Of a stretch of 64,000 nt of DNA, positions 41,163 to 59,144 are shown one piece after another. The notes under the pieces are model-generated. The model searched no databases. It was given only the letters and a program-made list of their open reading frames with translations, and was not told the DNA's origin. The number at the start of each line of letters is the position of its first letter. Position 1 is the stretch's first letter. Source of the stretch: Candidatus Heimdallarchaeota archaeon. GTDB taxonomy: Archaea > Asgardarchaeota > Heimdallarchaeia > Heimdallarchaeales > Heimdallarchaeaceae. Where the stretch lies: NCBI GenBank assembly GCA_030603365.1, contig JAUVXV010000001.1, positions 288,001 through 352,000 on the forward strand. The letters are read 5' to 3'. The translations under genes and the position numbers were made by a program.

Positions 41163-42566
41163 CTAAAGTTCTTTTAGTAATCTTCTGAAATCATTTAACC
41201 ATCGGGCTGCTTGGAATTCAAGTTTCTCACAATCTTCTTCTTTGATTACTTCCTGGGGATTGTATTTTGAAATAATTGCTTTCCAACTATTCATATCATC
41301 GATGGCCCAATGATCTTTTGGAATAGATGGAAACGTTTTCAATATGTGAAGCATCTCATCAATATCTGCTAGTAATAAATCAGCTCTAGCAACTGATTTT
41401 AACCTAGTCAGATCAATCAGCTCAATTGCTGAAGCAACAAAATCTGCAGTTTTTGTAGGCATCTTCTTTAATGTGTCAAATGGTATAGACACTGTATCTT
41501 CAGTTTCGATTCCTTCTGCGATTTTTAACTGTTTAATACCTTTAGGATATTTATTTTCTAAACCTTCTCGATTTAGGAATGCTTCTAAGCTGAATCCTAT
41601 CTTTTCTAATCGCATACGGGTTTTGAAAATGTCTCTGATTAGAGATTTTAACTGCTTTCTATATGCAATCTGCTCTATTTCATTATCTTCATAACCTTGT
41701 ATTAAGGTGTTCAGAGTAGCTATAGATGCAAATAAATCTGCTTCTAAATCCATTATTAGTTCATCTTCTTTAGTCATATCACCACTTGATCTGGTTTTAA
41801 CTTGATTTAGCTGTTTCTCAGCTTTAAAACCTTTTTTCGTATATCTTTTATGCAACTTAAGATATTCAATGTTTGTCATATCTCCATCTTCAAATTTCTC
41901 TTGAACTACTTCTAATGTATCTTGAATTGCTACAAATTCAGCTTGCAAGTCTTCTTCTCTTGAAATAGCAAGTTCTTTTGTTTTTGTTTCAATTCCTCCT
42001 TTCTTCAAGAGAGATTCTCTCTCCTTTTCGATTTCTCTGGAGATTTTTTCTATTTCACTTTGATGCTCTACTATAGAATCATCCAAAGTTTGTTTTTCTG
42101 CAACCATATGTCTACTTGTTGTTGCCAATGAAACCTGAGGTAGTTCTTTTATAGGAATTTTAGCAATAGTCAAACCTGAAATTCTTTCTTCCCTTTTGTG
42201 TTTCTTAACTTTTGTTTTATAAGGTTTAGCAGGAACATTTGTGAATAAATTCTTAATATCCTCAATTACCTGAAAAATGTGAATATCAGATCGCCATTCA
42301 GCAAGAATACGTAAGCTTAATGTTCCATCATCCTCCACATTGGGATGATTTACTTTAGGAGTGATATCAGCAAAGGGAGGTACTTCAGGGAAACCATCTT
42401 GAATATAAATATTGGCGAATATTGGGATTTCGGTACCCTCTATTGTACCTACATATCCTTTCCATTGTTTTAAATTCCCTCTAACGGGTTCAAAATTTAA
42501 TTGTTTATCAAATATTAATTGCATTTCATTTGCGAGTAGGTAATCGTCTGGGGAAATTTTGTTCAC
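41163..42566 (-). CDS. ESCRT-I fusion: UEV/E2-like domain + coiled coil/steadiness box (Vps23/37) + Vps28
   Basis: FPEVPP...HPNVEDDGTLSLRILAEW (E2 fold, Ser at the catalytic Cys position), FEDGDMTNIEYLK, EADLFASIATL, C-terminal Vps28-like bundle. Confidence 0.85.
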   Translation of the reverse strand: MNKISPDDYLLANEMQLIFDKQLNFEPVRGNLKQWKGYVGTIEGTEIPIFANIYIQDGFPEVPPFADITPKVNHPNVEDDGTLSLRILAEWRSDIHIFQVIEDIKNLFTNVPAKPYKTKVKKHKREERISGLTIAKIPIKELPQVSLATTSRHMVAEKQTLDDSIVEHQSEIEKISREIEKERESLLKKGGIETKTKELAISREEDLQAEFVAIQDTLEVVQEKFEDGDMTNIEYLKLHKRYTKKGFKAEKQLNQVKTRSSGDMTKEDELIMDLEADLFASIATLNTLIQGYEDNEIEQIAYRKQLKSLIRDIFKTRMRLEKIGFSLEAFLNREGLENKYPKGIKQLKIAEGIETEDTVSIPFDTLKKMPTKTADFVASAIELIDLTRLKSVARADLLLADIDEMLHILKTFPSIPKDHWAIDDMNSWKAIISKYNPQEVIKEEDCEKLEFQAARWLNDFRRLLKEL

Positions 42567-42644
42567 CTAACTTTTTATTTCTAATAAATGAATACACTCA
42601 AACTTTAAAAAATATTGCATTTAAAATGGTATTTTTCACACATA

Positions 42645-43652
42645 TTAATTAGTTATTTGAAGTACTACCTTTATTGGTTTAGCAAGATTTTTGTCAATTA
42701 TAAACGCTATAGCTTTAGATTTGGTAATTACATCCTTGATCTCTTTTTCTGGACTAAGCATTTTTCCTTGAATCATTATATCGGGCTTTGCCAAACCATA
42801 AGTTAAAACTAACCTCAAAATTAGATCCTTTACCGTCTCTTCAGGATTTACCACAAATTCAATTTGCTCTAGTTTGTATAGTTCTCCACAAGTTGGACAT
42901 TCTTCTGATTTTACAAGTTCTAAAATAGTTGTAGCATTACTCAAACCATCATAGAACATATAATTGTCTAAAGTATTTCCTATTCCTAATATTAACTTTA
43001 ATGCTTCTTGGGACATAAATCCTGCAATTATAGATGATAAAGTTGCTACTGCAGGTAACGGAGGTTCTTTTTCTAATTCATCTTGCCTTTCCTTCTTTCT
43101 TTCTTCTCCAAAAGGAGTACATGCTTGAGCAAGCTCTTCATCAGGAACTAGCGGTTGGCACTCAAAACATGCTGTTTCATAAGGTTTTATGACTTGAACA
43201 TTACCTAAGAATGCAAACATACCTCCCATAACAAGAGGGGCTTTTACTCTAACTGCCATCGAGTTTATCCATCTTCTTCCTATGAATGTGTCTAGACACG
43301 CGATTATAACATCAGCTTCTTCATAGATAGCAGAAGATACATCCTCCATTTTTTCATGAATGAATTCAATCTCACATTTAGGATTGAGTGGTTTCAGGTT
43401 TTCAGCAGCTATTTGGGATTTTGATTTTCCAACATCTTTATCTCTAAAAAGTAACTGTCTGTTTAAATTAGAGATTTCAATGGTGTCAAAATCAATAATG
43501 ATCAGTTTTCCTATACCAGAAGAAACAAGAATTGTTGCAACATAGCTTCCAATTGCTCCTATTCCAACAAGAACAATAGTACTTTTAGTTAGTTTATCCT
43601 GATCCCAACCAGGTATCAGTGTCTGTCTGGAATAGCGTTCATCATCACTCAT
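42645..43652 (-). CDS. Ubiquitin-activating E1 (ThiF/UBA family) with C-terminal ubiquitin-fold-like domain
   Basis: RYSRQ, GIGAIG, DTIEISNLNRQ, CFEC...ACT, CPTC; adjacent to ubiquitin. Confidence 0.92.
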   Translation of the reverse strand: MSDDERYSRQTLIPGWDQDKLTKSTIVLVGIGAIGSYVATILVSSGIGKLIIIDFDTIEISNLNRQLLFRDKDVGKSKSQIAAENLKPLNPKCEIEFIHEKMEDVSSAIYEEADVIIACLDTFIGRRWINSMAVRVKAPLVMGGMFAFLGNVQVIKPYETACFECQPLVPDEELAQACTPFGEERKKERQDELEKEPPLPAVATLSSIIAGFMSQEALKLILGIGNTLDNYMFYDGLSNATTILELVKSEECPTCGELYKLEQIEFVVNPEETVKDLILRLVLTYGLAKPDIMIQGKMLSPEKEIKDVITKSKAIAFIIDKNLAKPIKVVLQITN

Positions 43653-43772
43653 GAAGTGTACAACCCTTGATATTTCTTTTAGAATTATCCGATATAAGTT
43701 TTTTTTTACTTAGTTATTGAACTAAAACACATTCAGAAAAGAGAATTATTATGAAAAAAAGCATAAAGAAAA

Positions 43773-44009
43773 TTAAGAACCACCTTTGGTTCTAGCAATA
43801 AGATAGCATTTGTCGCCATCCATCATACCTGTCTGTTTTAGGATTTCACTGTCATCTAGTTGTTTTCCATGAAAAACAATAATAACTGTGTTTGCAGGAA
43901 TCTTCTTCTTCTTTGCTACTTCTCTTTTTAATTGTGCTACTGTTGAATGTGGATCAACATCCAATTCAATTGATCCCCCACCAATTGCTGTAACTACTGA
44001 AATACGCAC
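43773..44009 (-). CDS. Ubiquitin (pro-form ending -GG-S)
   Basis: ELDVDPHSTVAQLK, IP, IVFHGKQLDD, ARTKGGS; GTG start with aggtg RBS. Confidence 0.92.
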   Translation of the reverse strand: MRISVVTAIGGGSIELDVDPHSTVAQLKREVAKKKKIPANTVIIVFHGKQLDDSEILKQTGMMDGDKCYLIARTKGGS

Positions 44010-44111
44010 TTTTTTTACACCTAACCTATTCTACTCTTTTCTAGAACATATTCATTATTAAAGCTTACCAAATTGTACGAGCTAAAATCTTGATGAACAA
44101 ATCTAGAAATA

Positions 44112-44504
44112 TCAAGATCTAACTATTTTCTTCTTCTCTCCTTTTCTTTTTATTGTAATAGAAGAAGGTATACCTTCAATTTCCCTCTCCAGTTTTTTAA
44201 TCCCTAATCTTGATATTTGTTTTCCCTCTAAAAATCCAATTTTGATCATATAGAGAACATTTTTAAAAATAATTTCTGCTGTTTGTTTTTTATTTGGACT
44301 ATTATATAGATCTGACCAATAATCATAAGCTTCTGGAACCAAAAAGAATTGCATTAGAGATATTTTATCCTTTTCTTCAATACTTTGAGGTGCTTCTTCA
44401 GCGTTTTTCAGCTCTTCCATTCGCTCTTTTCTCTGTTCAGCGATACGCATGAGTTCTTGCGCTTTTTTCTTTCTTATTGCATCCAATTCATCATCGGTGG
44501 TCAT
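44112..44504 (-). CDS. PDCD5/TFAR19-like dsDNA-binding protein, divergent
   Basis: DDELDAIRKKKAQEL N-terminus, FLVPEA, C-terminal ITIKRK. Confidence 0.6.
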   Translation of the reverse strand: MTTDDELDAIRKKKAQELMRIAEQRKERMEELKNAEEAPQSIEEKDKISLMQFFLVPEAYDYWSDLYNSPNKKQTAEIIFKNVLYMIKIGFLEGKQISRLGIKKLEREIEGIPSSITIKRKGEKKKIVRS

Positions 44505-44794
44505 AACATCTCTTATTTTCAAAACATTAAGTCAAGTTATAAATCTATTTTTCAATAACATTGAACAATTATTTACAAATAAAAGTGTGAAATTTGGTGA
44601 TAATACTTTTATCTCGTTTAAAAAACTACAAGGTACTGGAGATAGGTGATTGGATTGAATAATACAATTCATGATGAGTTGTTTAGTTTTTAAATTTCAT
44701 CGTAGATTAATTTTAAAGATTTTAACTTTGAAAGAAGTGTCCTGCCAAAAATACTTTAAATAATCAAAACAAAGCATAATTAACAGAAGTTACC

Positions 44795-45448
44795 ATGAAC
44801 CAGAGGATTATCCAGATGTTTGAAGAGAAGAAAAATCAAAGAATCGCTAGAATCATCGAATTACCGATTCCAACAGATTTCTTTGATATGCTTCAAGATC
44901 TGATATCTTACTATGGTAACACTGACAAAGCAATTCTTGAATCTATTAAATCGCATCATAAAGAGCAGTTTGGGACTCTTGATGACTTTAAAATATCTAT
45001 TTCACCCATAGCTACAAGGTCAGTACGTCAAGCATCATCTATCAATGCTTCAGTAACTGATGCAAGACTAGCTAAGATAGTTGAAAATGGAAAGAGGATG
45101 GAAAAAAGAACTCAGAAAGAAATTAAGAAAGTGGATAATTTACTTAATAAACTGGAAGACTTAACAGCTCTCAAAGAACTGAAAGACGAAATTAGTTCTA
45201 TGAAATCAATGATTGAAAGGATTCAATCTACTGGAGGAATAACAAGTAGAACAAGAGGTTCAAGAGCAGATTTATCTTCGCTAGATGTGTCTGTTGTTGA
45301 CCAAATTGATACACCATTATCTCCACCTGAACGTCCTCTCCTGGATACAGTTTTAGACAGTATGCTTTTCTTTGATGATGAAGACCTATTAGACGATAAT
45401 AGCGATGATGAAAAAGAAGAAGAAAAAGAAACTGAAGATAAAAACTAA
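44795..45448 (+). CDS. Hypothetical protein with coiled coil and acidic tail
   Basis: 217-aa ORF with plausible promoter and coding composition. Confidence 0.7.
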   Translation: MNQRIIQMFEEKKNQRIARIIELPIPTDFFDMLQDLISYYGNTDKAILESIKSHHKEQFGTLDDFKISISPIATRSVRQASSINASVTDARLAKIVENGKRMEKRTQKEIKKVDNLLNKLEDLTALKELKDEISSMKSMIERIQSTGGITSRTRGSRADLSSLDVSVVDQIDTPLSPPERPLLDTVLDSMLFFDDEDLLDDNSDDEKEEEKETEDKN

Positions 45449-45451
45449 AAC

Positions 45452-45997
45452 TTAGGGATCTAATTTCTTTGCTTGTTCTACTAGAAGTTCAGCTATTTCT
45501 GAAAAAGCCTCCTCTACATGGGCTCCTGTTAATGCACTTGTTTGGAAACTGCTATGACTTTTAAGTTTAGTATGGGTTTCATCACATTCCTTTTTAGAAA
45601 CAGCAATTTGATTTTTCAAATCTTCTTTATTTCCTACCAAAATTTTGACCACATCTTTTCCACAATTTTCAGAGAACTCCTTGCTCCATTTCTGAACGTT
45701 CTTTAGAGTGGCTGCTCTAGTTAAATCATAAACTAATAAAGCTGCTTTAGCACCAATATAGAAAGTATGACGAATAAATCTAAATCTTTCCTGACCTGCC
45801 AAATCCCAAATTGAAAGCGCTACTCTTGTTCCGTCTTTCAGATCTACATGTTTTTCAGAAGGTTCCATTCCAATCGTCATCAAGTAAGAACTGTCAAATC
45901 TACCATGAACAAATCTTTGAACCAAACTGGTTTTCCCTACAGCAGCATCTCCTAATAATAGAATTTTAAAATTATAATCTGGTTGAAGTTTACTCAT
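45452..45997 (-). CDS. Rab-like small GTPase
   Basis: GDAAVGKTS, TIG, WDLAGQERF, NKED, SAL; no C-terminal Cys prenylation motif. Confidence 0.95.
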   Translation of the reverse strand: MSKLQPDYNFKILLLGDAAVGKTSLVQRFVHGRFDSSYLMTIGMEPSEKHVDLKDGTRVALSIWDLAGQERFRFIRHTFYIGAKAALLVYDLTRAATLKNVQKWSKEFSENCGKDVVKILVGNKEDLKNQIAVSKKECDETHTKLKSHSSFQTSALTGAHVEEAFSEIAELLVEQAKKLDP

Positions 45998-46001: not shown

Positions 46002-46310
46002 TTAATCTCCTAGTGTTTTAGATAGTTCTTCGAGCTCGTTATTAAGGCTAGATAAATAGAATGATTCGAAATTTCCTTGAGCTCTCTCAATAGTAGTAAG
46101 AGATACACATAAGTCCAGAGCAGTCTCCTTGAGCTCTTTTTCATGATCCTTTGGGATGTAAGACTCTATCTTACTTTGTGCTCTTTTAGCAAGTGTTGAA
46201 ATTTCTTTACTATCAGCTAATCCATCCTCATATGCAGTAAGGGTTTTTTGCATCCAAATAACTGCTTTCTTGAGTTCACTTATATTATCAAGTGGTGAAA
46301 CAGCATTCAT
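46002..46310 (-). CDS. Hypothetical helical protein, likely co-transcribed with the GTPase
   Basis: 4-bp gap to the GTPase start; its 3' end holds an aggag RBS. Confidence 0.65.
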   Translation of the reverse strand: MNAVSPLDNISELKKAVIWMQKTLTAYEDGLADSKEISTLAKRAQSKIESYIPKDHEKELKETALDLCVSLTTIERAQGNFESFYLSSLNNELEELSKTLGD

Positions 46311-46372
46311 TACAAATAAGAAAAAGAAACAGCGTTAATATAATTTGCGTTTGCTAGTAAAGAAAATAAAAC

Positions 46373-46410
46373 AAAAAAAAGAGGGAAAATCCCTCTCCAC
46401 TCCCATAATA
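46373..46410 (-). terminator. Hairpin + T-run terminator-like element marking the left edge of the island
   Basis: gaggga-aaa-tccctc stem, A8 run on + (T8 on -), followed by ctccactcc, also found at 49148 and 58828. Confidence 0.55.
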
Positions 46411-46428
46411 AATGAGGAGATTGAAATT

Positions 46429-47082
46429 TTAGTAATCAGATTTTTTCTTCTTACATTTACAAATCATTAATAGGGCAACAATAATGGAAGTAAGAGGAAG
46501 GACAATTGAAAGCGGTTTGTATTCAGGGATTATATAGTCAAATGGAATATAAGTGATGTTCATCACTCCCGAACTCATCTGAAGTATAGCTTCATAAGCA
46601 TCACCAAGAGTAGTATTATAAAATAGAGTTTCTATATAGATAGGTCTCCAGAAGGTATAATTACCATCAGGAAGATAAGGAAGGTCTGTTTGGTTGACGT
46701 AGAAAATCATAGGGTGAACTTCAACAGTGATACCAGGAGGGTAGGAACAAGTCTCTACAGAACCAGAACCAATCGATCTAACTGTTAGCTCTAAAGATTG
46801 ATTGACAAAAGACACATTGAGAAATACATAAGGTGATGTACTTGATTCAATAAGCGTTTGGTTTTGGTCATCTCTATTTAATATTTCCACAGTTGCGTTA
46901 AGACTGAATTGAGTAGTATTTGGTTTAAGGAGGTTAGGATATGAATTGATGGAAATATCACTGATCAATGATACTCTTGAACTAACGATAGTATATTCAC
47001 CTTCAACAGATGCAATATTAGACAGGATTAAAAGTTGTAATAATGCTAATGATATAGTGATTTTTTTCACTGAATGTTTCAC
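46429..47082 (-). CDS. Secreted, C-terminally anchored hypothetical protein (paralog 1)
   Basis: Signal peptide, LPYLPDGNYTFWRP, TM plus basic tail; ggagg RBS. Confidence 0.8.
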   Translation of the reverse strand: MKHSVKKITISLALLQLLILSNIASVEGEYTIVSSRVSLISDISINSYPNLLKPNTTQFSLNATVEILNRDDQNQTLIESSTSPYVFLNVSFVNQSLELTVRSIGSGSVETCSYPPGITVEVHPMIFYVNQTDLPYLPDGNYTFWRPIYIETLFYNTTLGDAYEAILQMSSGVMNITYIPFDYIIPEYKPLSIVLPLTSIIVALLMICKCKKKKSDY

Positions 47083-47157
47083 ATTATTCTACCTCCTTAA
47101 AGCAATCAATTTTCGATATGTGTTCATTTATACTTATGCATAATATATTATAAACAT

Positions 47158-47935
47158 TCATGCTAACCTTCCCTCTGTATATGCCTTACCGCATGCAAGA
47201 TATAAATCAACATACCCATAACCCATCTGGTCAAATGTACTTCTGGAACTAGCATATTGCAAGATATCAATAACTTTTTGAACAGTGGGATCAGTCGAAG
47301 AACCGATTCCATTATGATATCCTGTAATTATTAAAGCTATTATGCCTGCGAGATAAGGTGTGCTATAACTTGTTCCACAATGATATCTCCAGATACTTAT
47401 AGGTTGACCGTATCCGTCAAATCCCCATGTTAAAGCTGGTATCCCATTTCCAGGATCAAGCCAGTTAACAATGTGATTCCCCGTTTCATATGATTCATAC
47501 CAAGAAGAGAAAATTGATTTTCCATTTTTCGTAGACACTGGAGCTCCTACAGGTCGAGTTTCATGGTCTATTGAACCAATAGAATACCACTGAGAATAGT
47601 AACTAGGATACAGTCTATAATCACTACCATCGAAGTTTCGATAATTACCAACATTAAAATATCCATTTCCAGATGCACATATCATTATAACCCCCTTATT
47701 GATCAGGCTATCCCACTTGGTTGCAATATTAGGGGTAGAATATAATATGTCATCAACAAAATCTTGAGACCATGTAATGATATCTATGTCATATGTTGCT
47801 TGATTATCATCTAACCACGTCCATAAATCAAGATCACCTTCATAAAATTCGTAAGGGTCTTGTCCAAAGAAATCAACAAGTTGCATATCCACAAAGTTAT
47901 CAGAATTTCGTAGGATTTGAAACAGTTGAAGTAAT
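47158..47935 (-). pseudogene. 5'-truncated subtilisin-like (S8) serine protease
   Basis: ASGNG oxyanion and GTSYSTPYLAG Ser motifs, GYGYVD; catalytic Asp/His region absent, upstream frame closed. Confidence 0.8.
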
Positions 47936-48050: not shown

Positions 48051-48695
48051 TCATCGTTTTCTCTTCTTAATATAGAGTATAAATATGATTATAGTTACCA
48101 TTGTAAGTGGAAAGGCAAGCGAAAGGGCAGTATACTCAGGGATTGTATAGTCAAATGGAATATAAGTGATATTCATTTCCCCTGAACTCATCCGAAGTAT
48201 AGCTTCATAAGCATCACCAGGAGTAGTATTATAAAATGGAGTTTCTATATTGATTGGTCTCCAGAAGGTATAATTACCATCAGGAAGATAAGGAAGGTCT
48301 GTTTGATTGACGTAGAAAATCATAGGGTGAACTTCAACAGTGATACCAGGAATGAAGGAACGAGACTCTACAGAACCAGAATCAAACGCATAAACTTCAA
48401 GTTCTAAGGATTGATTAACTAAAGACACATTGAGGAATACGTAAGGTATTGTATTTGGTTCAATAACTGTTCGATTTTGGTCATCTCTATTTAATACTTC
48501 TACAGTTGCGTTAAGACTGAATTGAGTAGTATTTGGTCTAATGATACTGGGAAATGAATTGATAGATATGTCACTGATCAAAGAAACTCTCGAACTAACA
48601 ATAGTATATTCACCTTCAACAGATGCAATGTTAGATAGGATTAATAGTTGGAATAATACCAATGTTATAGTAATCTTTTTCACTGAAAGTTTCAT
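48051..48695 (-). CDS. Secreted, C-terminally anchored hypothetical protein (paralog 2)
   Basis: Colinear and highly similar to 46429-47082. Confidence 0.8.
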   Translation of the reverse strand: MKLSVKKITITLVLFQLLILSNIASVEGEYTIVSSRVSLISDISINSFPSIIRPNTTQFSLNATVEVLNRDDQNRTVIEPNTIPYVFLNVSLVNQSLELEVYAFDSGSVESRSFIPGITVEVHPMIFYVNQTDLPYLPDGNYTFWRPINIETPFYNTTPGDAYEAILRMSSGEMNITYIPFDYTIPEYTALSLAFPLTMVTIIIFILYIKKRKR

Positions 48696-48770
48696 ATTAT
48701 TCTACCTCCTTGAAATAATCAATTTTCAATATATTTTTATTTATACATATACTTAATATGTTATAAACAT

Positions 48771-48832
48771 TCATGCTAATCCCCCCTCAGTATAAGTTCT
48801 ACCATATGCAATATAAATATCCACATAGCCAT
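48771..48832 (-). pseudogene. Last ~20 codons of a second S8 protease copy
   Basis: GYVDIYIAYGRTYTEGGLA* versus GYVDLYLACGKAYTEGRLA* at 47158. Confidence 0.8.
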
Positions 48833-49128
48833 GGGAAAATGAATTGAAGAAAGTAGATTTAGAACCATTAGGTAGATGTAAAAAATTGAAAGGGATATAT
48901 TTGATAAGAAATAAGATAGAAGAGATAGATCTAACACCATTAGGGAAGTGTAAGGAATTGAGGGAAGTGAGTTTATCATCAAATAGGATAAGGAAAATAG
49001 ATTTGAGACCATTAAAGAAATGTGAAAAATTGGAGAGTCTGACACTGTTTTGGAATCCAATAGAAGAGATGGAGAGAGAAAGTAGAGACATACTAAAGAA
49101 ATACTATGAAATAATAAAAAAAGAATGA
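48831..49128 (+). pseudogene. 5'-truncated LRR gene, paralog of 58359-58808
   Basis: Ungapped alignment to 58511-58808; begins abruptly at the S8 fragment junction. Confidence 0.85.
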
Positions 49129-49237
49129 AAAAGGGCAGAGAGCCCGACTCCACTCCAAGAATAATGGGCCGAAAGACCCAGAAGAAAGAGATTAAACAGA
49201 TTGTGAAACTTCAACAGGTTGTTCTACTAAAAACTCG
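48831..49237. repeat. 407-bp direct repeat, left copy (LRR 3' part + terminator hairpins + wHTH gene tail)
   Basis: Ungapped match to 58511-58917, offset 9680; about 51 mismatches by hand count (~87%). Confidence 0.95.
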
Positions 49238-49305
49238 TGAATAAGTATTTTCCTTCTTTAAATATCAATTGGAGAATAAGTAAGAAAAAGAGAAGAGAAA
49301 TACCA

Positions 49306-49620
49306 ATGAACTGGCAAATGATCTTCAAGATTTATGTAGAAGGAAAAGAAGGAAAGATAGAACTAACGAGATACAATATAACAACAGTAGACGGACTGAA
49401 ATTCTTCTTGAAGAACCTCTATGAAGAACAGAAAGGATGGTTAGTAGAGAAGAGGGAGAAGAGGGCATGGAATTACGAGATAGTATTTACAGACGAACTA
49501 GGAAGAGAAGTAGAGCTGAAGAAACTAAATGAACTGATACATGAGAGTGAGGAGATAATAAGTTTCTTCGAGATGACAGAGCTAACAATAGGAGAATTAT
49601 TAGTGGAGGGAATAGGATGA
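49306..49620 (+). CDS. Hypothetical element protein
   Basis: Purine-rich ORF, ATGA-coupled to the next ORF. Confidence 0.6.
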   Translation: MNWQMIFKIYVEGKEGKIELTRYNITTVDGLKFFLKNLYEEQKGWLVEKREKRAWNYEIVFTDELGREVELKKLNELIHESEEIISFFEMTELTIGELLVEGIG

Positions 49621-49811
49621 TAGAGATAATCAGTTACATTGTAGCATTATTCCTCATCTGGAGTCTGATCATTCTAGAGGAAGGAGGAAGGTTTCCAATA
49701 AACGAAAGAATAGTAGTAAAGTATTGGGGTTTGAATAACGATGATTACAGAAAAATCAAGTATAAAATTAAGAAAGAGAAAAGAACTAAGAGTGAAGAGA
49801 AGGGAATTTAG
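49617..49811 (+). CDS. Small membrane hypothetical protein
   Basis: N-terminal hydrophobic helix, ggaggg RBS, ATGA overlap. Confidence 0.5.
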   Translation: MIEIISYIVALFLIWSLIILEEGGRFPINERIVVKYWGLNNDDYRKIKYKIKKEKRTKSEEKGI

Positions 49812-49819
49812 GGAGATAT

Positions 49820-50544
49820 GTGAATTAACAGTAAAAGAGATCTCAGGTTTCATTTCAATAGGATTATTTATCTTAGGAGTAGGGATATTGACCAAACTCT
49901 TCATTAAGGAAGTAGGAGGAGTAGGAGTTTTCTTTATAGTAATGGGATGCATATGACTAAGTTTTTGTCTATTGTATTTTCTTCCTACTCCAGAGAGAGT
50001 AATGGATGAAGCAATAGCAGATGAAAGAAGGATGAATGGTTTCTCCAACATACTTAGAAGGATAGAAGATATGGAGGAGTTGAAAGAGATAGAAAGCAAG
50101 ATGTGGGATGTAAAAGAGATAAGAGTGAAGATAAGGAATTACGAGGAAGAGGAAAAAGAGGAAATAGAGTTCAAAATAACAGATTATCTAGAAAGAAAAG
50201 AACGACCAGAATTAAGAGGTATGTACTACTTAGAAAAGAAACCATTAGAAAAAATGTATCTTAAGGTAAGTACAGAATTGTGGAGAAGAGTGGAAGAGAG
50301 AAGACAGGAAAAAAGAAAGAAGATGGGAAAAATAAGGTTGAAATCTCTCCGGAAAACTGGGGAGGGACATGTGATAATACTTGGAAAGAGATTGAATGGA
50401 CAGAAGTTCTGGAAAAGAAAAGAGAAAGTAGAATTCTTTGTTGCGAAGGAGAAGTTAGAAGAACAAAAGGTTAGACCAACGATCATGAAAGAGCTTGGAT
50501 TTGAGCAGAAAGAAAGATTCAGATTACTAATAGAACAAGAATAA
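49820..50544 (+). pseudogene. Two-TM + charged-domain element gene interrupted by in-frame TGA (49954-49956); start uncertain
   Basis: ORFs 49741-49956 and 49972-50544 share a frame; read-through gives a continuous hydrophobic helix MGCI*LSFCLLYFLP. Confidence 0.55.
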
Positions 50545-50624
50545 GGATAAGATATTAATCTTTTCAGTTACTTGTTTTGGATGTCCTGAAAAATCTTTTA
50601 AGTTATCTTTCATATGTTAAAAAG

Positions 50625-51230
50625 ATGTCTTCAAAAGAAACTAAATTGAGCAAAGAAAAACGAAGAGAACTTCTCAGATTCAATCTGGAAAATATTAGAG
50701 AATATATTGCAATTGCTGATTCAAAAGCAAATATTACCTTATCTTTGTTAAGTTTTATAGTAGGAATAGGGTTGGGGGTTTCATTGATTGCTGATACATT
50801 TGAAAATGGAATATTGTTAACATATACGAATTATTGGTATTTATTCCTAATAATCCCCTTTTACATATTATTGATGGCGTATCTTATTTTATCCATCCTT
50901 GGAATAAATTCTGTAATTGGAGTTTATAGAGCCAGATTAGAATTAAAAGAAGAACAAGAAAAGGAGCAAGAATTAACTGGAGATATCTACTTCAAGCACA
51001 TATCAGATTATCAGTCATCTGATGAATATCATAAAGGAATCATGAACAAAACAGAAGAAAGTTATGAGAAAGATTTAGCAGAACAAGTATATTCTGTTTC
51101 AAATGTGTTAAGTAAAAAAATGGCAAAGGTAAATGAATCTATAAAATATCTAAAAATTTCCTTAATTTTGTTCATTCTTTTACTGCTTTTGAGTGCAGTG
51201 ATTGGAATTTTAATCCAAAATGGAGGATAA
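50625..51230 (+). CDS. pycTM: Pycsar-type transmembrane effector (PycTM/DUF5706-like)
   Basis: YIAIADSKANITL, two TMs, IYFKHIS, DLAEQVYSVSNVLSKKM, terminal TM; coupled to a cyclase. Confidence 0.8.
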   Translation: MSSKETKLSKEKRRELLRFNLENIREYIAIADSKANITLSLLSFIVGIGLGVSLIADTFENGILLTYTNYWYLFLIIPFYILLMAYLILSILGINSVIGVYRARLELKEEQEKEQELTGDIYFKHISDYQSSDEYHKGIMNKTEESYEKDLAEQVYSVSNVLSKKMAKVNESIKYLKISLILFILLLLLSAVIGILIQNGG

Positions 51231-51978
51231 TAAAATGGTCAGTAAATATGAATTAGAAAACCTCACTAGAAAGATAAAAACCTATATTGAGGAAGAATAT
51301 AGAATTAGAGAGTTTTCAGGAATACCAACAGTGAGTAATATTCCATATGGAATTAAAGGACAGAAAGGACAATTATGCGTATTTAGCATAGATCTTCGAC
51401 ATTCTACTAAGATGTTAAAGGAAATCGGAAAAGAAAAATCAGGAAGAATACATAAAGCATTCTTAACCATTGTAGCAAAAGTTGTCAAAAGCTATGGTGG
51501 AAAGATTCGAAGTTATACAGGAGATGGATTATTAGCTTTCTGGAAGGGAGATAGTTCTGATGAAGTTTCTAAATCTGTCAAAGCTGCAATGATTATACGA
51601 TGGTTATTTTCAATAAGTAATAATTCGAATCCTTCGCCAATAAAAAGCTTGATGGATAAAATATATGAAATAGATTTTGGGATAGGAATTGACTGTGGAG
51701 AGGTTTATGTATTTAGATCAGGTATACCTGATTCCCATCATGATTCTGATTTAATCTTTATGGGAGAGTGTGTTAATTTTGCAGTGTTTCTATCTCAAAA
51801 AGCTAAATCAAATAATTATATACAAATCTCTGAAAAAACATATTCCTTATTGAATGATGGATGGAAGTTTAGTACAAAGAATAATACGAAAGAAGATATG
51901 TGGACAGATGGTGAAGTAAAAGGAAAAGATAATATCACTAGAAATATCAAAAAGACTAATTGGTATTCACACATATAA
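51220..51978 (+). CDS. pycC: Class III nucleotide cyclase, Pycsar PycC-like (alternative start ATG 51235)
   Basis: SIDLRHST, GGKIRSYTGDGLL, FGIGIDCG, DLIFMGECVNFA. Confidence 0.82.
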   Translation: MEDNKMVSKYELENLTRKIKTYIEEEYRIREFSGIPTVSNIPYGIKGQKGQLCVFSIDLRHSTKMLKEIGKEKSGRIHKAFLTIVAKVVKSYGGKIRSYTGDGLLAFWKGDSSDEVSKSVKAAMIIRWLFSISNNSNPSPIKSLMDKIYEIDFGIGIDCGEVYVFRSGIPDSHHDSDLIFMGECVNFAVFLSQKAKSNNYIQISEKTYSLLNDGWKFSTKNNTKEDMWTDGEVKGKDNITRNIKKTNWYSHI

Positions 51979-52339
51979 TGAATTAGAAGAATTGGTCTAA
52001 TGCTGATTGCTTTTTGAGAAGTATTGGAGCCAGATTTCTCCTTAAATCTCATCTTTTGGTGAAAGACTGCAAATAAAAGGATAATTACTAGCTCCAATTT
52101 ACTTGCTTGTTAAACATATTTAAGTTTTGCACAATTTCCAAATCGAAAGTGAAATAGTTAATCTAAAAATATCTTCTCATTTTACTTTTTGGGTTTTTAT
52201 ATCGAAACCATATAATAGTAAATGCTACTAACAGTAGCAGAGAAATTGGTGAAAGACTGTTTGTTTAGAGGGAATTAATCTCAAAACATAATTGCTATCG
52301 TTGATGCAAGTTTTTTACCAGTTTATATCAGGTGATATC

Positions 52340-52462
52340 ATGAAAATAAAGAAAGTAGGTAAAATTGAGAACGGAAACAAACTAGATAAGATTTCAATAG
52401 TTCCATGTTGCGGAATGGCTGACTATGAACTAGCAATATGTGCATATCCACGTTTAAACTAG
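52340..52462 (+). CDS. Putative RiPP precursor peptide, 40 aa: MKIKKVGKIENGNKLDKISIVPCCGMADYELAICAYPRLN
   Basis: ggtgat RBS before ATG, Lys-rich leader plus 3-Cys core, T-tract after the stop, 32 bp before the rSAM/SPASM start; below the ORF-track cutoff. Confidence 0.75.
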   Translation: MKIKKVGKIENGNKLDKISIVPCCGMADYELAICAYPRLN

Positions 52463-52494
52463 TTCTCTTTTCTCTTTTTTTTGAGGTTTTAGAG

Positions 52495-53916
52495 ATGAAA
52501 AAAGAAAATAAAAGAAACAAATTGAATAAGTATGTGTATGAAGTCCAGCTATTAGATGAAGAGTGGTTTATATTTAATTTGCTAAATTTCAACTATGTAA
52601 TCTCAGATAAAAGTCTTAAACAAACTGAAATCGCGGAACTTGATTCTGATACAAGGGAGGTTTTGTATGACCTTGGTTTTATATCGGATATTGATGAACA
52701 AACCCTTTGTCAATCAAGAATAAAGGAATGGAAGAATAAAATTAAAAGTGATTACAATCCTTCATTCGAGACATTGGTTTTTAAGATTATGCCTACTCTT
52801 TTGTGTAACTTCAGATGTTCATACTGTTATCAACCAGAACTATATCTTGAGGAAACAAGAAGAAAAACAGAATATATGAGGACAGAGGTACTAGATGCAT
52901 TTTTCGAATATATTGAGAACAATATTATTCAAAAAGAAAAAAGGAAAATTAGATTAGAAATTGTGGGAGGAGAAGTTTTCTTAAAAAATAGAAATGCAAT
53001 CAGATTTGTTGAACATCTTATTGAAAAGACAATCAACTACAATATGGAGCTAATTTTTGTTACAAATGGCTAACATCTTGACCACTTTCTGGAAATTTTA
53101 AAACGAAAAGAAAACATAATGTATAATATTACAATTGATGGAGAGAAAAAAAAACATGACTCTAGAAGATTTTTAGCTGGAGGAAAAGGGAGTTTTGACA
53201 AAATTATTCAAAATATAGACAAAATTCTATCAGAGACAAATCATAAGGTTCGAATAAGATGTAATATTGATGATGATAATATAGAATCAATTCCTTCTCT
53301 TCTGCTATTTTTACAAAACAAAGGATGGTTATCACTTGAGAGAATAGAGATGATTTTTAGAGCAACAACAGAATATTCAACAAATAACGATTACGATTTT
53401 CCTATTGCAAGGAACATTATTTCACCAGAAAATATCGTTAGATTTATAGAAATTCTACGAAAACAAGGAATGAGAGAAGCAAATATTGACGGTACATTAA
53501 TTCCTCCTGTTTTAATAGGATTATTTTGGTCTCGATTATTTGAAGAAGAGATGATAGATGAGAACCGAAGAACTAAAACAATAGATATTCTTTGTAGTGC
53601 AACTCAAGGTTTTTTTGGTTCATTAGAGCTTGATGGAACAATTCGCTCATGTGGATTTGAATTAGCTCAATCTCAAGGAAAAATATTTCCAAGAGAGGAA
53701 GTTATATATGAAAATGTCAAATATTGGAATTCTGTTGAGTTTATTCTTGAGAAATTCCTACACCAACCTTGTCTTGAGTGCAAATTCTTCTTTGTTTGTA
53801 ATAAAAGGCAATGTCCTTACAATCAACTTGATCAATATGATGAGAAGTTAGGATACTGCATTGATGTTGAACAAAGTCTAGATACATTCTTCAGATACTT
53901 TGGAAAATTCCTATGA
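52495..53916 (+). pseudogene. Radical SAM/SPASM peptide maturase with RRE-like N-terminus; single in-frame TAA at 53071-53073
   Basis: CNFRCSYC, GGEV, VTNG*, ITIDG, HDSRR, SPASM Cys (CSAT...RSC...CLEC...VCNKRQCP...YC); both track ORFs are in one frame. Confidence 0.85.
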
Positions 53917-53975
53917 AAAGTTGTTAATTAACTCGTAATATTTAAATTACTGCAGTTCTTTGTTATTTTGATATT

Positions 53976-54575
53976 ATGAAAGAAATTGCTGTTTCCTTGA
54001 ATCTTATAGATTTAGTAAACGATCCCATTAAAATCTCTATCTGGCAAGAAATCTTTAACAACGAAGGAATAACTGCCAAAGAACTGAAAAAAAGGTTGGT
54101 TCTTGAAGGTACAAGCATCTATTACCATTTAAACTATTTAGAAGAGAATAAATTAATTTTATCAGAAACTCATATGATTCCAAACTCAAACTTATCGCAA
54201 AAAACATACAGAATCAATAAAGAATTGTATAGCTTGAATGAAAAAACAAAAAGAAAGGAAATTGCGGATTCCTTTGATAGAGCAAAGGACATTCTTCTTC
54301 TCAAGACACATATGATAATAAGCCATTTTCAGCAACAAGTTCGAATATTATCTAAAACTACTAACGAAGAAATCAAGAAATTAATCGAAAAGGATTCCAT
54401 TTTCATCAATGATATAATCTATGTTCAAGATAAAGATTTACTTGAAATCGTGGATAAGGTTAATGAAGTTAAAAGCATTATGAACAGAATTCGAAAAAGT
54501 ATTCATCCAGAAGAATATTCTAAAAATGCTACTAATATAATAGTGTTTAGTACCCTTCCTCTAAAAGATATTTAA
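53976..54575 (+). CDS. ArsR-like winged-helix transcriptional regulator
   Basis: DPIKISI...TAKELKKRL...SIYYHLNYLEENKLI. Confidence 0.8.
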   Translation: MKEIAVSLNLIDLVNDPIKISIWQEIFNNEGITAKELKKRLVLEGTSIYYHLNYLEENKLILSETHMIPNSNLSQKTYRINKELYSLNEKTKRKEIADSFDRAKDILLLKTHMIISHFQQQVRILSKTTNEEIKKLIEKDSIFINDIIYVQDKDLLEIVDKVNEVKSIMNRIRKSIHPEEYSKNATNIIVFSTLPLKDI

Positions 54576-54919
54576 CTCTGAATTCAGCTTTATCCTAACC
54601 CTCTTTTAAACAAATATTTAATATTCCTTTAAGTCAATAGATTTGAAGTATTTTGATTGTTTTTCTAACTCTTTGCACAAAAAATAAGTTATGTTTATAT
54701 ACCAAAAACATGTCTACAAAGTGAACGTTCCGTTGTTAGACTGAGTAAATGAAACTTTGCTAAACAAAAGGTGAAAGACTGCAAATAAAAGGATGACAAC
54801 TAGTACTCCAATTAGAATGAATTGCAAAACTAACAGAAATTAATCTGTATGACAAAAACTTTCGAAGACACACAGAAAATCAACAAGGAACGTTACAAAA
54901 CTAAAAAAAGGTAAAAATA

Positions 54920-55222
54920 ATGAAAAAAAGTATAAAGATATTATTACCAATATTGGTATTATCACTTATTCTACCAGTTTTGGTGAATGATGTACAACAA
55001 GTATCTGCTGCACCCTACTACGGTTCAGTTGATTTTAGTGGAACTGTTTATTTGAATTGGTCTAATGAAGAAGTAGGTAGCGTGAAAGTATCGTTGAATG
55101 AAGATGGATCGCCAAAAAGGACAGACTATACGGATTCAAATGGTTACTATGAGTTCACTTGGACTGTAGTTCAATACAAATTTTACTCGATCAGCATAGA
55201 AAAAGATGGTTATAAAGGATAA
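54920..55222 (+). pseudogene. Secreted carboxypeptidase-regulatory-like beta-sandwich protein, probably truncated
   Basis: Signal peptide, SGTVY...VKVSL...TDSNGYYEF...YSISIEKDGY; stop falls inside the expected last strand. Confidence 0.55.
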
Positions 55223-55258
55223 AGCATAAAAATCAAGAATATATGGAATAGAATAGAG

Positions 55259-56857
55259 ATGAAAAAAAGATTACAACTTATAAGGAATTTTGGTTATTTT
55301 TGCAGTTTAATATTACTGATTGTTTTTTTTGCAAATTATATGTTTCTATTAAACAGCGAACAAATTTTGGAAAAAGAAACTATATTCCAAACTGATTCAT
55401 TGTATGAAGTTAAACTAACACTGAGTGATCCAATAATCATAATCAATGATCAAGATCTTGAGAGCTTTGGTTTTCAAGGTTCAGGAACTGAAGCAGAACC
55501 TTACCTTATAGAAAATTATCTTATAGATACAGACGATGAATTTGGGATTTTTATTACAAATGTTTCAAAGCATTTCAAAATTCAATATTGTGAGGTTTAT
55601 GCAGGGATATCAGCTATTAGCATAAGTAATTTAACACTAGAAAACATTGAAATTACTAACAATGTTTGTCAAGGTGAGGAATGGTATGGGATTTATATTT
55701 ATTCAACAAATTATGTGGTAATAACCGATAATTGGTGCAGTGGAGGAGCAGCAGGAATTGTTTGTTGGTACTCGAACAGTGAGTTTATTGAGAACAATGA
55801 ATGTTATGACACTGATTTTGGCATAGCTCTTTATGAAACTCATAAGTCCATTATTGGAGATAACTTCTGCTACAATAATAATATTGCAGGAATTCGTATA
55901 ATGTATTCTAGTTATAATAATATCTCAAGAAATACAATTAACATTGCAGGAAAAGGGATTAGTCTTGTAAGTGCTAGTTTTGGGTCAATTCATGAAAATT
56001 TCTGTAATAATACATTTTGGGGGATTTCAGCAGAATATACAAACAGAATATCAATACATGATAATCTATGTATCAGAAGTACTACAGGAATACAATTATG
56101 GCATACAGGAAAAATAAACATTACCCACAATGAATGTTATTCTTGTCACCGAGGAATTTCAGTTGATGATGATTCTGAATCACAGGTTCGAAATAATATC
56201 TGCTATAATAATTCCGAACATGGTATTTATATCAGAACTGGTGAATCAACTCAAGTATCTAATAATTCTCTTTATCTGAACAAATTAACAGGAATTAAGA
56301 ATCTTAGAGGTTCTCCAATTATTGGACTAAACAATTGCAGTATGAACAACATTGGAATACTTATGAGAGATGTTCAATCACTTACACTTTCAAATAATAC
56401 CTGTACATTGAACGTGGATGGAATTGTATTAGAGGAAACAGATTACTCTACTATTTCTTATAATATTCTCCAAGAAAATATAGAATATGGTGTAAAAATC
56501 TGGGATTGGTCAACTTGGAACAAAATACATCACAATTACTTCATCTGCAACAATAGAAATGGTACTGAACATGGTTTTTCTCAAGCTTATGATGAAGGGT
56601 ATAATAACAGATGGTATGAAAGCTCTACAGATGAAGGGAACTATTGGAACGATTATGAAGGGATTGGAGAGTATCAGATTGACGGAAAAGATAACAATAC
56701 CGATCCTTATCCCTTTGAATACTATTTTGAGTGTATAAAAACAGAAACAATAACTGAACCAACAGAAGAATCTTCTTTAAGTCTTCTTACTGTTTTATTA
56801 TCATTCATTGGGACTGCGTCGATTGCTAAAATTCGATATAAAAAAGAAAAGAAATAG
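55259..56857 (+). CDS. Right-handed beta-helix (NosD/PbH1) surface protein with C-terminal anchor
   Basis: GSGTEAEPYLIEN, repeated IxxNxCxxxxxGI, GNYWNDY, DPYP, TM plus basic tail. Confidence 0.9.
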   Translation: MKKRLQLIRNFGYFCSLILLIVFFANYMFLLNSEQILEKETIFQTDSLYEVKLTLSDPIIIINDQDLESFGFQGSGTEAEPYLIENYLIDTDDEFGIFITNVSKHFKIQYCEVYAGISAISISNLTLENIEITNNVCQGEEWYGIYIYSTNYVVITDNWCSGGAAGIVCWYSNSEFIENNECYDTDFGIALYETHKSIIGDNFCYNNNIAGIRIMYSSYNNISRNTINIAGKGISLVSASFGSIHENFCNNTFWGISAEYTNRISIHDNLCIRSTTGIQLWHTGKINITHNECYSCHRGISVDDDSESQVRNNICYNNSEHGIYIRTGESTQVSNNSLYLNKLTGIKNLRGSPIIGLNNCSMNNIGILMRDVQSLTLSNNTCTLNVDGIVLEETDYSTISYNILQENIEYGVKIWDWSTWNKIHHNYFICNNRNGTEHGFSQAYDEGYNNRWYESSTDEGNYWNDYEGIGEYQIDGKDNNTDPYPFEYYFECIKTETITEPTEESSLSLLTVLLSFIGTASIAKIRYKKEKK

Positions 56858-56999
56858 AATAATAGATTCCCTGTCCTAATTCATTTTTTTTCTTAAAACT
56901 CTAGAGATTTTATTATTGAGTATAAATCGAACTATTAATGAATTACCAAGCTTTAAATAGGAATTTATCAATCTAATATTTGAGCGTTTAATTCACCGA

Positions 57000-58301
57000 A
57001 TGGACATGCTTGGAATGAATATGATAAACAAATCTGAAATGAACAAAACACTTCTCTTCTACAGTATAGGCATTGTTATGTGCAAGAATCTGGTAAAAAC
57101 ATCATTTGCTGAAGATATATTAACGAAATTTTGGATTTGGGTGAATGCCAAGATAATAAGAAGAGTAATGGAAGAGAAGATGAACGAACTTCCACTATTA
57201 AGAAAACTTTACCAAGAGAAAATGATAAAATTCATACAGCAAAGTGATAAACTGTTACTTATATACGCACCCTATTCTTCCTCTAGTTCTATAAGTTATA
57301 TTAAAGCATTTAATGATGATAATTCAATCTCGTTCTTAGATTTATTCAGAACAACCGATGGTAGAGTACTTGATCTAAATGTGCTTCTAGCAAATCACTA
57401 TGTTAAGATACTAACAGATCCTAATCACAAAATAACGAAAGAATTAAGTAGACTTGAACTAGAAGATGGAGGGACAAATGTCGCACAATTGGCTTTATCA
57501 GCAATAAATTTTTTGAAAGAAAAAACGGGGTATACTTCGCTTTACAAGAAAGAAATGTCAATTGAAGGAATAATCAAAGATATGGGTTTAGATCTGAATA
57601 TTAACGAAGCAGTTGAACAAGGATTAATCAAACGAGATTCAGCAATAGCGCAATATAAGACACTCCATTTATCTTCTGAAGGTGATTTATATAAAGTAAC
57701 TGAAGCAATCAAGAATATCTTCTATTTAGACAGTATCTATAAAGGACTATATACAATTGGAGAAATTGCAAAGGATATGATGAAAAGTGGTTCTAATGGT
57801 GGGTTAAGAGAATCAGATTTGATTGAATTATTTAAAAAAGAAATAAATGGACGAATGACATATGCAATGGGAACTTCAACAATAACTGCTTTTGAGATTA
57901 AGGCACCTGCAATAAAAGTGCTAAGCACAACTACACATTATGATGTGGATATAAAAGAAAAAGATCTAAAGAGTCAACAATTAGCGTTACTTACTAGAGA
58001 TGCGGTCGAACAATATCTGGATACAAAAATACTGATGCCAACATGTTACATAGGAGAGGGGAACATAATAGTAGAGAACATAATGGAATCAATAGTAGCA
58101 TTGCAACTAAAGGAAGCAGCAGTAAGTTGGAAGAGAATAAATGATTTCGAGCAAATAGCACAACTAGTAGGAACAGAAAAGGCATATGAACTAGTGTTTG
58201 GAAAGGGATATAATTATAATCCAACAAAACTGAATAAGAAAAACTGGTTCATGAGGTGGATACATCTGATGGCAGGATATAGTTTCGTAGATCCAAAATA
58301 A
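57000..58301 (+). CDS. Hypothetical protein (possibly a C-terminal remnant of a larger element gene)
   Basis: 433-aa open frame with no recognised motif; start uncertain. Confidence 0.6.
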   Translation: MDMLGMNMINKSEMNKTLLFYSIGIVMCKNLVKTSFAEDILTKFWIWVNAKIIRRVMEEKMNELPLLRKLYQEKMIKFIQQSDKLLLIYAPYSSSSSISYIKAFNDDNSISFLDLFRTTDGRVLDLNVLLANHYVKILTDPNHKITKELSRLELEDGGTNVAQLALSAINFLKEKTGYTSLYKKEMSIEGIIKDMGLDLNINEAVEQGLIKRDSAIAQYKTLHLSSEGDLYKVTEAIKNIFYLDSIYKGLYTIGEIAKDMMKSGSNGGLRESDLIELFKKEINGRMTYAMGTSTITAFEIKAPAIKVLSTTTHYDVDIKEKDLKSQQLALLTRDAVEQYLDTKILMPTCYIGEGNIIVENIMESIVALQLKEAAVSWKRINDFEQIAQLVGTEKAYELVFGKGYNYNPTKLNKKNWFMRWIHLMAGYSFVDPK

Positions 58302-58358
58302 AGAAAAAAGGTAGATTAAAATACCTCTTTTCACATTTATTATTTTAAGGGGATAAGA

Positions 58359-58808
58359 GTGAGAAAAGTAAGAGGGAAAAGAAGTACAGGAGAAGAATAC
58401 ATACAAGAAATTAAAGATACAACAACGCTTGTGAACATGAGTAAATTAGGATTAGTGGAAGTAGATTTAAGAGAACTTGAGGGATTGAAAGAATTATTAT
58501 ATGTTTATCTATGGGAAAATGAATTGGAGGAAGTAGATTTAGAACCATTAAGAAAATGCAAGAAATTGAAAGGGATATATTTACATGGAAATAAAATAAG
58601 AGAGATAGATTTAACTCCGCTGGAGGAGTGTAAAGAGCTGAGGGAAATTGGACTGTCATCAAATAAAATAAGAAAAATAGATTTGAGACCATTAAAGAAA
58701 TGTGAGAAATTGGAGAGCTTGACGCTGTTTTGGAATCCAATAGAAGAGCTGGAGAGAGAAAGTAGGGATATAATGAAAAAATACTACGAAATAATAAAAA
58801 AAGAATGA
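58359..58808 (+). CDS. Small leucine-rich repeat protein of the element
   Basis: VDLxPLxxCxxLxxIxLxxNxI repeats; GTG start. Confidence 0.88.
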   Translation: MRKVRGKRSTGEEYIQEIKDTTTLVNMSKLGLVEVDLRELEGLKELLYVYLWENELEEVDLEPLRKCKKLKGIYLHGNKIREIDLTPLEECKELREIGLSSNKIRKIDLRPLKKCEKLESLTLFWNPIEELERESRDIMKKYYEIIKKE

Positions 58809-58917
58809 AAAAGGGCACAGAGCCCGGCTCCACTCCAAGAATAATGGGCCGAAGGACCCAGAAGAAAGAAATTAAACAGATTGTGAAACTTCAACAGGTT
58901 GCTCTACTAAGAACTCG
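58511..58917. repeat. 407-bp direct repeat, right copy
   Basis: Matches 48831-49237. Confidence 0.95.
58808..58860 (-). terminator. Two GC hairpins plus T-run between the convergent wHTH and LRR genes
   Basis: gggc-acaga-gccc and gggcc-gaag-gaccc; conserved at 49128-49180. Confidence 0.55.
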
Positions 58918-59144
58918 AAATTTTCCCTAATACTTGGGTCGAGATAGTAGAAGACCGAACGCATATCTGACAAATTGGACATTTTTTTGAGGATGCCTTT
59001 CTCTAATAATCTTCTTATACCATACCTTACTGTTCTTTCAGGTTGTTCTACTGAACCGAGGATTTGCTTCTGAGTCATAGGACCATTTATGTCTAAGACC
59101 TTAATTATGTCTTCTCCACCACGTGGCAATTTTCGTCTTTTCAT
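58872..59144 (-). CDS. Small archaeal winged-helix (MarR/ArsR-like) regulator; apparent integration target
   Basis: GPMTQKQI...ERTVRYGIRRLLEKG...SDMRSVFY; aggtg RBS before ATG 59144. Confidence 0.85.
   Translation of the reverse strand: MKRRKLPRGGEDIIKVLDINGPMTQKQILGSVEQPERTVRYGIRRLLEKGILKKMSNLSDMRSVFYYLDPSIRENFEFLVEQPVEVSQSV

Follow-up and report, generated by a model that had tools for sequence, protein, structure and literature searches.

Stacked foreign DNA at the 3′ end of a conserved winged-helix gene in a Heimdallarchaeal genome

In the genome of a Candidatus Heimdallarchaeota archaeon (GenBank assembly GCA_030603365.1), the last codons of a conserved winged-helix (wHTH) gene occur a second time beyond 9.7 kb of unrelated genes, which raises the question of how DNA came to lie behind an intact core gene together with a spare copy of that gene's end. 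The window analysed here is a stretch of 64,000 nucleotides (positions 288,001 to 352,000, forward strand, of contig JAUVXV010000001.1), which belongs to a 701-kb contig from a metagenome assembly, and all coordinates refer to it unless another contig is named. The host and the relatives compared with it belong to the family Heimdallarchaeaceae of the Heimdallarchaeia, the lineage already recognised in the initial annotation of the window. That annotation also proposed a single 9.7-kb element, integrated at a 46-bp attachment (att) site by an integrase since lost or acting in trans. The comparison with relatives leads to a different picture, in which the 3′ end of the wHTH gene is a true insertion hotspot with empty, singly filled and stacked alleles; the hotspot is real and well supported. 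The features on which the argument rests are the following.

58872–59144, minus strand: conserved 90-aa winged-helix gene anchoring the insertions (weak Pfam wHTH matches; orthologs 80–90% identical across the genus)
58932–58967, minus strand: recoded patch, codons 60–71, spanning the D-M|R-S hotspot, with the Arg codon at 58961–58959 (from comparison with the empty sister contig L137)
58511–58917, plus strand: right 407-bp copy, with the 3′ part of a leucine-rich-repeat (LRR) gene, a two-hairpin untranslated region (UTR) and the current wHTH tail
48831–49237, plus strand: left 407-bp copy, with a 5′-truncated LRR gene, UTR and the displaced wHTH tail (49192–49237)
49228–49237, plus strand: 10-bp microhomology TAAAAACTCG, the actual junction (aligned with a module from genomes G016, G010, G013 and G018)
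46311–46415, minus strand: what is left of the original wHTH terminator and the adjoining chromosome, matching L137
46002–46310, minus strand: core gene directly after wHTH at empty sites

The wHTH gene most likely starts at the ATG at 59144, giving 90 aa as in the gene calls of relatives, and its synteny includes a NAD kinase gene and the block formed by gene 46002 and the Rab, ubiquitin and ESCRT genes. Directly downstream of the hotspot, positions 40000–45997 carry conserved genes for a Rab-like GTPase, ubiquitin, E1, UEV-Vps28 and ESCRT components.

The two gene ends (49192–49237 and 58872–58917) are identical at 44 of 46 positions and differ by TTT/TTC and GAA/GAG, and a 27-mer taken from the match occurs twice in the window, with 0 occurrences expected by chance. 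The near-identity, the two synonymous changes and the abrupt stop at 49237/58917 noted originally all stand, but the similarity continues on the other side: the 46-bp match is merely the end of a 407-bp direct repeat (48831–49237 and 58511–58917, 87.5% identical), of which no further copy was found elsewhere in the genome. Each copy is made up of the wHTH tail, a UTR of 63 bp that contains two hairpins, and 300 bp from the 3′ part of an LRR gene in convergent orientation. The copies differ at 2 of 46 positions in the tail, 4 of 63 in the UTR and 33 of 221 in the ungapped part of the LRR gene, where 21 of 95 codons differ synonymously only and 14 with a change of residue. The left LRR gene is cut at 48831, where 2 bp overlap the end of a subtilase gene, and a second repeat (46490–47219 and 48103–48832; 730 bp, 86%) covers the subtilase end and a membrane-protein gene. 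The foreign DNA reaches about 46415 rather than 49192; there, the original wHTH terminator and flank persist, matching the site as it stands empty in a sister species. Because the flank and terminator of empty L137 match 46311–46415, the foreign DNA spans about 12.5 kb. The window holds at least three stacked layers, made of the Pycsar pair and the NosD, LRR and subtilase units described below, and this mosaic replaces the single 9.7-kb element.

An empty site joining wHTH to about 46.4 kb had been predicted and is found in 32 distinct related loci, in which wHTH lies 129–298 bp from the counterpart of gene 46002–46310. (G numbers denote genomes, L numbers related loci or contigs and C numbers contigs; G000 is the 89%-complete host genome.) These loci include the close sister contig L137 (protein 98% identical), and both complete Ca. 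Heimdallarchaeum genomes are without an insert at the wHTH site. Seven other loci are filled with varied cargo of 0.6–8 kb, five of which keep the displaced tail (L034, L048, L071, L240 and L074, the last on a separate contig of G022). The same plan is followed, with its own lineage's tails, in G007 (L048), where wHTH is succeeded by an LRR gene, a fragment of the 433-aa gene that starts at 57000 in the window (g57000), a tail copy, an LRR remnant and subtilases. The junctions lie at various distances before the wHTH end, at about −21 (L071), −46 (window) and −87 to −91 (L034, L048, L074 and L240). No paper describing this hotspot was found in open-access text. In another locus of G022 (L049, G022:C70), a Gln codon of the wHTH ortholog is replaced by an in-frame TAG.

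Which tail is the newcomer is answered by L240. Over its displaced tail and 40 bp of UTR, L240 agrees with the empty G004 allele at 133 of 133 positions, and the flank downstream matches at 942 of 955, while the gene's own tail differs from the displaced one at 7 synonymous and 3 residue-changing codons. The incoming DNA brings a replacement 3′ end, as had been suggested, and the far copy is the older tail. Between the L240 gene and G004 there are 3 differences in the 167 bp that end at −14 and 20 from −13 onward; the junction lies at −1, and the upstream flank of L240 is only 88–95% identical to G004. Because the gene diverges from G004 13 bp upstream of the junction, the sequence upstream of the join is foreign too and not that of the displaced resident. 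No core common to the donor and resident tails was found at the join (ATG CGT AGC versus CAG AGA TCG). The L240 pattern fits an upstream homologous anchor, or a displaced tail that was afterwards replaced as far as homology reached, and does not fit the simple point integration of a circle. When the window gene is compared with the empty allele L137, 11 of the 18 nucleotide differences fall in codons 60–71 (scan p = 0.009), and both L240, set against G004, and the window, set against L137, show a homologous anchor on one side and foreign sequence already before the join. The idea that the window tail is a non-synonymous foreign tail was dropped; L137 has nearly the same peptide.

The edge at 49237 itself has a simpler origin than an att site. 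The 10 bp TAAAAACTCG are common, with one mismatch, to the wHTH antisense strand and to the native upstream region of the module of small open reading frames (ORFs) whose first gene starts at 49306, a module that sits at other loci in G016, G010, G013 and G018. The native upstream sequence of this module contains T(A/T)AAACTCGAG, with an inverted-repeat hairpin further up, and the wHTH antisense strand at the edge reads TAAGAACTCG. At the window junction, the module is truncated and its native upstream hairpin is absent, and beyond the microhomology the similarity of module and wHTH is at chance level. The TTC/TTT change (49231) lies inside the microhomology and is the base carried by the module at unrelated loci in four other genomes; because the last 10 bp of the edge are native to the incoming module, this "synonymous" change is probably the module's own base, so that it would be no true allele difference. 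Judged by these alignments, the 46-bp edge is a microhomology join within a truncated module and not an att site, and the junctions at wHTH vary (~21, 46 and 87–91 bp before its end). The microhomology may mark the primary illegitimate join or a later deletion between the same short sequences. Far-junction microhomology amounts to 10 bp with one mismatch at 49228–49237 and to 2 bp at 48831. The module's upstream region was also considered as an ancient attP and rejected, its rank being at chance level (127–2707 of 3996 gene tails).

Similar scars exist at other genes. In a genome-wide scan, cargo bordered by displaced tails came up at kbl (95 bp), C2:43326 (87 bp), C12:37664 (52 bp), C15:24131 (36 bp), C12:140748 (32 bp) and elsewhere; some matches of the scan are plain tandem paralogs. 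No motif was found in common among the scars of kbl and four or more further unrelated genes. Displaced kbl tails of 95, ~99 and 243 bp occur in three genomes, and a 110-bp case in G007 encloses gene fragments. The subtilase at 47158–47892 is itself a displaced gene tail, moved in the same way as the wHTH tail.

The cargo, for its part, is free of recognisable recombination genes. No recombinase, transposase or viral gene was recognised in the window cargo, no tyrosine or serine recombinase in the cargo of L034, L048, L069, L071 and L240, no nuclease family or fold in any cargo, and no tRNA in the window. The sole tyrosine recombinase of the genome lies on another contig, C11, and 16 of the 31 family genomes gave no PF00589 match, among them G007 with its filled site. 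Searches with PF00589, PF00239 and PF07508, and comparison of the tail, the cargo and the arms of a hairpin family found at cargo-module starts with 23 integrase loci, gave no link; the viral contigs searched were without tail, arm or wHTH. A recombinase-bearing contig with the wHTH tail, which the initial annotation had proposed to look for, was not found among the integrase loci and viral contigs. Three individual candidates were rejected: a split SSV-type integrase across the junction, whose frames are closed by stops; a 486-aa ORF beside the G022 tail copy, which has weak HEPN-like neighbours only; and g57000 as a homing nuclease, for which the structural model reaches a pLDDT of 61 and the fold search gave no match. 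Of the five serine-recombinase matches in the genome, three are IS607-like or lie beside a large TnpB-sized ORF and two are stand-alone proteins of ~245 aa. Such stand-alone proteins with a recombinase-domain-like C-terminus occur at C15:328334-329065, C2:49039-49788 and C1:639171 of G000 and at L127:4731-5447; one of them is syntenic in G011, and they are candidates for action in trans.

Altogether, these observations favour homology-anchored additive insertion with an illegitimate far join, in at least three rounds at the window locus, a reading to which we assign a probability of roughly 60%. DNA from a related Heimdallarchaeaceae cell, carrying wHTH and downstream cargo, would pair with the conserved wHTH or with the flank upstream of it, and host homologous recombination would make the crossover there. 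The far end, which lacks homology, would enter the last 20–90 bp of the resident wHTH through an illegitimate join at a few shared bases. The gene would thereby be restored with the donor's tail and terminator, and the resident tail and older cargo would be shifted downstream to decay; repeated rounds would build the three or more layers, and recombination between repeats could loop a layer out again. The enzymes and the route of DNA entry are what we infer rather than see, and the 46-bp edge may either be where the DNA first joined or have arisen when a join at D-M|R-S was later shortened by a microhomology deletion.

Several points weigh against this reading. Experimental homology-facilitated illegitimate recombination (HFIR) is rare, and it has been described with deletions in naturally competent bacteria (PMC5361080, PMC6382021), not in archaea; DprA and ComEC were not found in the 89%-complete genome. 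Two independent lineages (L034, and the group of L048, L074 and L240) join at the same base, ATG to CAG in D-M|R-S, and the Ser and Arg codons flanking this junction are the three most changed codons of wHTH. D-M|R-S is a recoding peak throughout the family. Its invariant Ser has switched between AGY and TCN 7 times, against 0–2 switches in 16 control columns of invariant Ser and 4 for one Ser of kbl. In a paralog with this motif, switching is at most about half as frequent. All three displaced tails that retain the Arg codon have AGA, and the wHTH genes in L034, L048, L240 and the window have CGY; this pattern covers only 3–4 loci and was noticed after the fact, and there are also filled sites with AGA and empty sites with CGY. 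Crossovers could be focused at D-M|R-S by an anchor in the strongly conserved K-K-M-S-N stretch immediately upstream. Gene conversion from the paralog sharing DMRSV is unsupported (own-genome identity 15.7 versus 15.2 of 21), and no tail duplicates were found at this paralog in 22 genomes. Separately, at a locus unrelated to wHTH, L127:120-225 (G011:C13) holds a hairpin arm followed by ~45 bp similar to the beginning of the wHTH tail, which is either a moved relic or the arm's native flank.

One rival is site-specific integration at an att site in D-M|R-S (~58961), with the recombinase lost or in trans; the 46-bp edge would then be a later microhomology deletion that took ~41 bp of tail and the element's hairpin end. 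Besides the junction common to L034 and the G007 group, this scenario draws on the hairpin-ended module 10–15 bp from the junction in L048, L074 and L240, on the recoding of the window gene from the same D-M|R-S codon and on the small serine recombinases of the genome. However, donor and resident have no identical core at the join, the foreign sequence of L240 already starts before its join, tail and arm are on no integrase locus or viral contig, the same hairpin modules stand behind other genes without a tail copy, and the target genes are many and unrelated; moreover, a single old event can have given the G007 group its common junction, the displaced tail having been replaced afterwards as far as homology extends. 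We regard it as possible if somewhat unlikely. The original suggestion of a lost or trans-acting integrase is thereby narrowed: none was recognised in the cargo or on a contig with the tail, and what is left is an enzyme acting 41–45 bp further upstream, at D-M|R-S. It is unlikely that an undescribed sequence-directed, integrase-free system operates here, in which a trans enzyme would join modules ended by the GGAGCTAG...CTAGCTCC hairpin to a fixed wHTH site and to other gene ends while hosts recode the target synonymously. Homing with a replacement gene end has a precedent in mitochondrial mobile endonuclease ORFs. In a homing-like spread, a sequence-specific nuclease would cleave empty ATG-AGA alleles, and their repair on a filled template would copy in the recoded, immune tail with the cargo, in keeping with recoding on both sides of the junction, with AGA in displaced residents and CGY in replacements, and with different resident alleles abutting the same arm; yet no nuclease was recognised in the cargo, the 433-aa candidate being without a fold match, and the AGA and CGY exceptions in a sample of 3–4 loci make this decidedly improbable.

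Two further explanations are weaker still. Local tandem duplication of the tail–LRR unit without incoming DNA, followed by divergence and deletion, could account for the LRR gene and lineage-typical tail in both copies, and tandem paralog arrays with duplicated upstream tails do exist in the genome (C16:75130, C15:113295). However, the copies differ mainly at synonymous sites, like two working alleles, the far copy of L240 is another genome's allele, and the sister-species site is empty; L240 and L137 already largely refute this scenario, which is very improbable. A chimeric assembly of two strains might be suspected in a metagenome and had been named as a possible refutation of the insertion; it is disfavoured because other genomes show the same architecture, the tail–LRR–remnant stacking recurring in G007, and with LRR copies only ~85% identical and a contig of 701 kb we give it almost no credence.

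The principle of displaced gene ends is already known from bacteria, and homology-anchored insertion at wHTH can be set beside several of these systems. Effector-immunity modules of the Vibrio cholerae type VI secretion system have been linked to HFIR and sequential displacement (PMC5361080). As in that case, a conserved anchor gene receives a new module beside it, older modules are shifted and truncated, no integrase is involved, and the copies come from different relatives rather than from duplication; here, in contrast, a small core regulator serves as the anchor, the cargo combines Pycsar, surface-protein and subtilase genes, the resident gene end persists as a second copy, and the host is an archaeon without DprA or ComEC matches. 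C-terminal displacement in rhs genes (PMC2935791) likewise involves a replacement 3′ end, old tips in a string downstream and homologous recombination, but the variable rhs tip is the payload, whereas here the tail is nearly synonymous and the payload consists of unrelated genes. Insertion with long target duplication (PMC2853133) shares variable direct repeats of tens to hundreds of bp, the lack of a mobility gene and defence cargo; no archaeal case remained after that study's filters, and the window differs in having no restriction-modification genes and in repeats that are alleles from different cells rather than copied target. The e14 prophage in icd, with its displaced icdC (PMC13626634), also restores the 3′ end of a protein gene with mostly synonymous changes and leaves a pseudogene tail, but uses an integrase and one fixed crossover; here no integrase was found and the junctions vary, with two lineages sharing one base. 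HeimM1/M2, HeimV1/V2 and aloposons (PMC8813620) are mobile cargo of the same archaeal family; they use tRNA genes or cas-operon flanks, several with integrase or viral genes, and the insert in the window, which contains no tRNA, is not one of these described Heimdallarchaeal elements. Gene import by Asgard archaea bears on the origin of eukaryotes, and the series of empty, singly filled and stacked alleles at this locus, which adjoins the Rab–ubiquitin–ESCRT block, suggests that defence and surface genes enter through core-gene-anchored, integrase-free recombination. The junction and the recoding hotspot yield precise predictions for larger read sets.

The cargo consists of the following units.

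49238–50544, plus strand: purine-rich small-ORF module (49306–49620, 49741–49956, 49972–50544), cut upstream of its first gene
50577–51978, plus strand: Pycsar-like pair, PycTM effector (50577–51230) and PycC cyclase (51220–51978), from PADLOC and Pfam
52026–52095, plus strand: inverted-repeat hairpin of the cargo-module-start family, with a half-relic at ~54770–54812
52438–53916, plus strand: radical SAM/SPASM gene with one in-frame TAA at 53071–53073
53976–56857, plus strand: helix-turn-helix (HTH) gene, short secreted-protein fragment (54920–55222) and NosD beta-helix membrane protein (55259–56857)
57000–58808, plus strand: 433-aa gene of no known family (g57000) and LRR gene (58359–58808)
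48051–48832, minus strand: second layer, the last 20 subtilase codons and a membrane-protein gene; 730-bp repeat (86%) of 46490–47219
46429–47892, minus strand: oldest layer, 5′-truncated subtilase (47158–47892) and membrane-protein gene (46429–47082)

For most cargo pieces, paralogs exist in further islands of this genome or, in relatives, at unrelated loci. The HTH, secreted-fragment and NosD genes each have paralogs in other islands, homologs of the small-ORF (49306) module occupy unrelated loci in about ten relatives and at C1:640 kb, and intact versions of the oldest subtilase layer stand at the same site in G020, L069 and L071. The PycTM and PycC genes are adjacent with an 11-bp overlap and were detected by PADLOC at E = 1e-25 and 2e-48, respectively, PycTM also scoring above the Pfam cut-off; from its genes, the pair in this Asgard island is predicted to be complete. 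Anti-Pycsar genes are reported to be common in Asgard genomes (PMC13700489). The g57000 protein is related to C-terminal domains of 2200-aa proteins, and the same g57000–LRR pair adjoins wHTH in G007. The 57000–58301 domain (also in L083, L084 and L085) stands alone here and forms the C-terminus of 2200–2400-aa proteins elsewhere, with an LRR gene following it in the window and in G007; the two genes could be a toxin-immunity-like pair.

The hairpins at cargo-module starts form a family of 60–80 nt with terminal arms GGAGCTAG/CTAGCTCC, in which the variant GAAGC/GCTTC alters both arms. Besides the two window copies (52026–52095 and 54770–54812), members lie at C1:695359, C1:700781, C2:44392, C14:57326 and C14:344748 and, in relatives, in L048, L087, L127, L129, L132 and L225–L228. 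Several fold better than shuffled sequences (z about −3 to −4), and an Rfam search of the window gave nothing above chance and no hairpin match; an element end, a protein-binding site and an RNA are all possible roles. A small-ORF module with an R-K-I-W-C motif stands behind conserved genes at L132:9702-12148 and in L129, L130, L131 and L074, and in G020 it is followed by a 403-aa protein resembling phage GP88/radical-SAM-like clusters. Another stacked array is found in L133 (G000:C1:620-637 kb), where seven copies of a 50–66-bp repeat lie between NosD and other surface genes.

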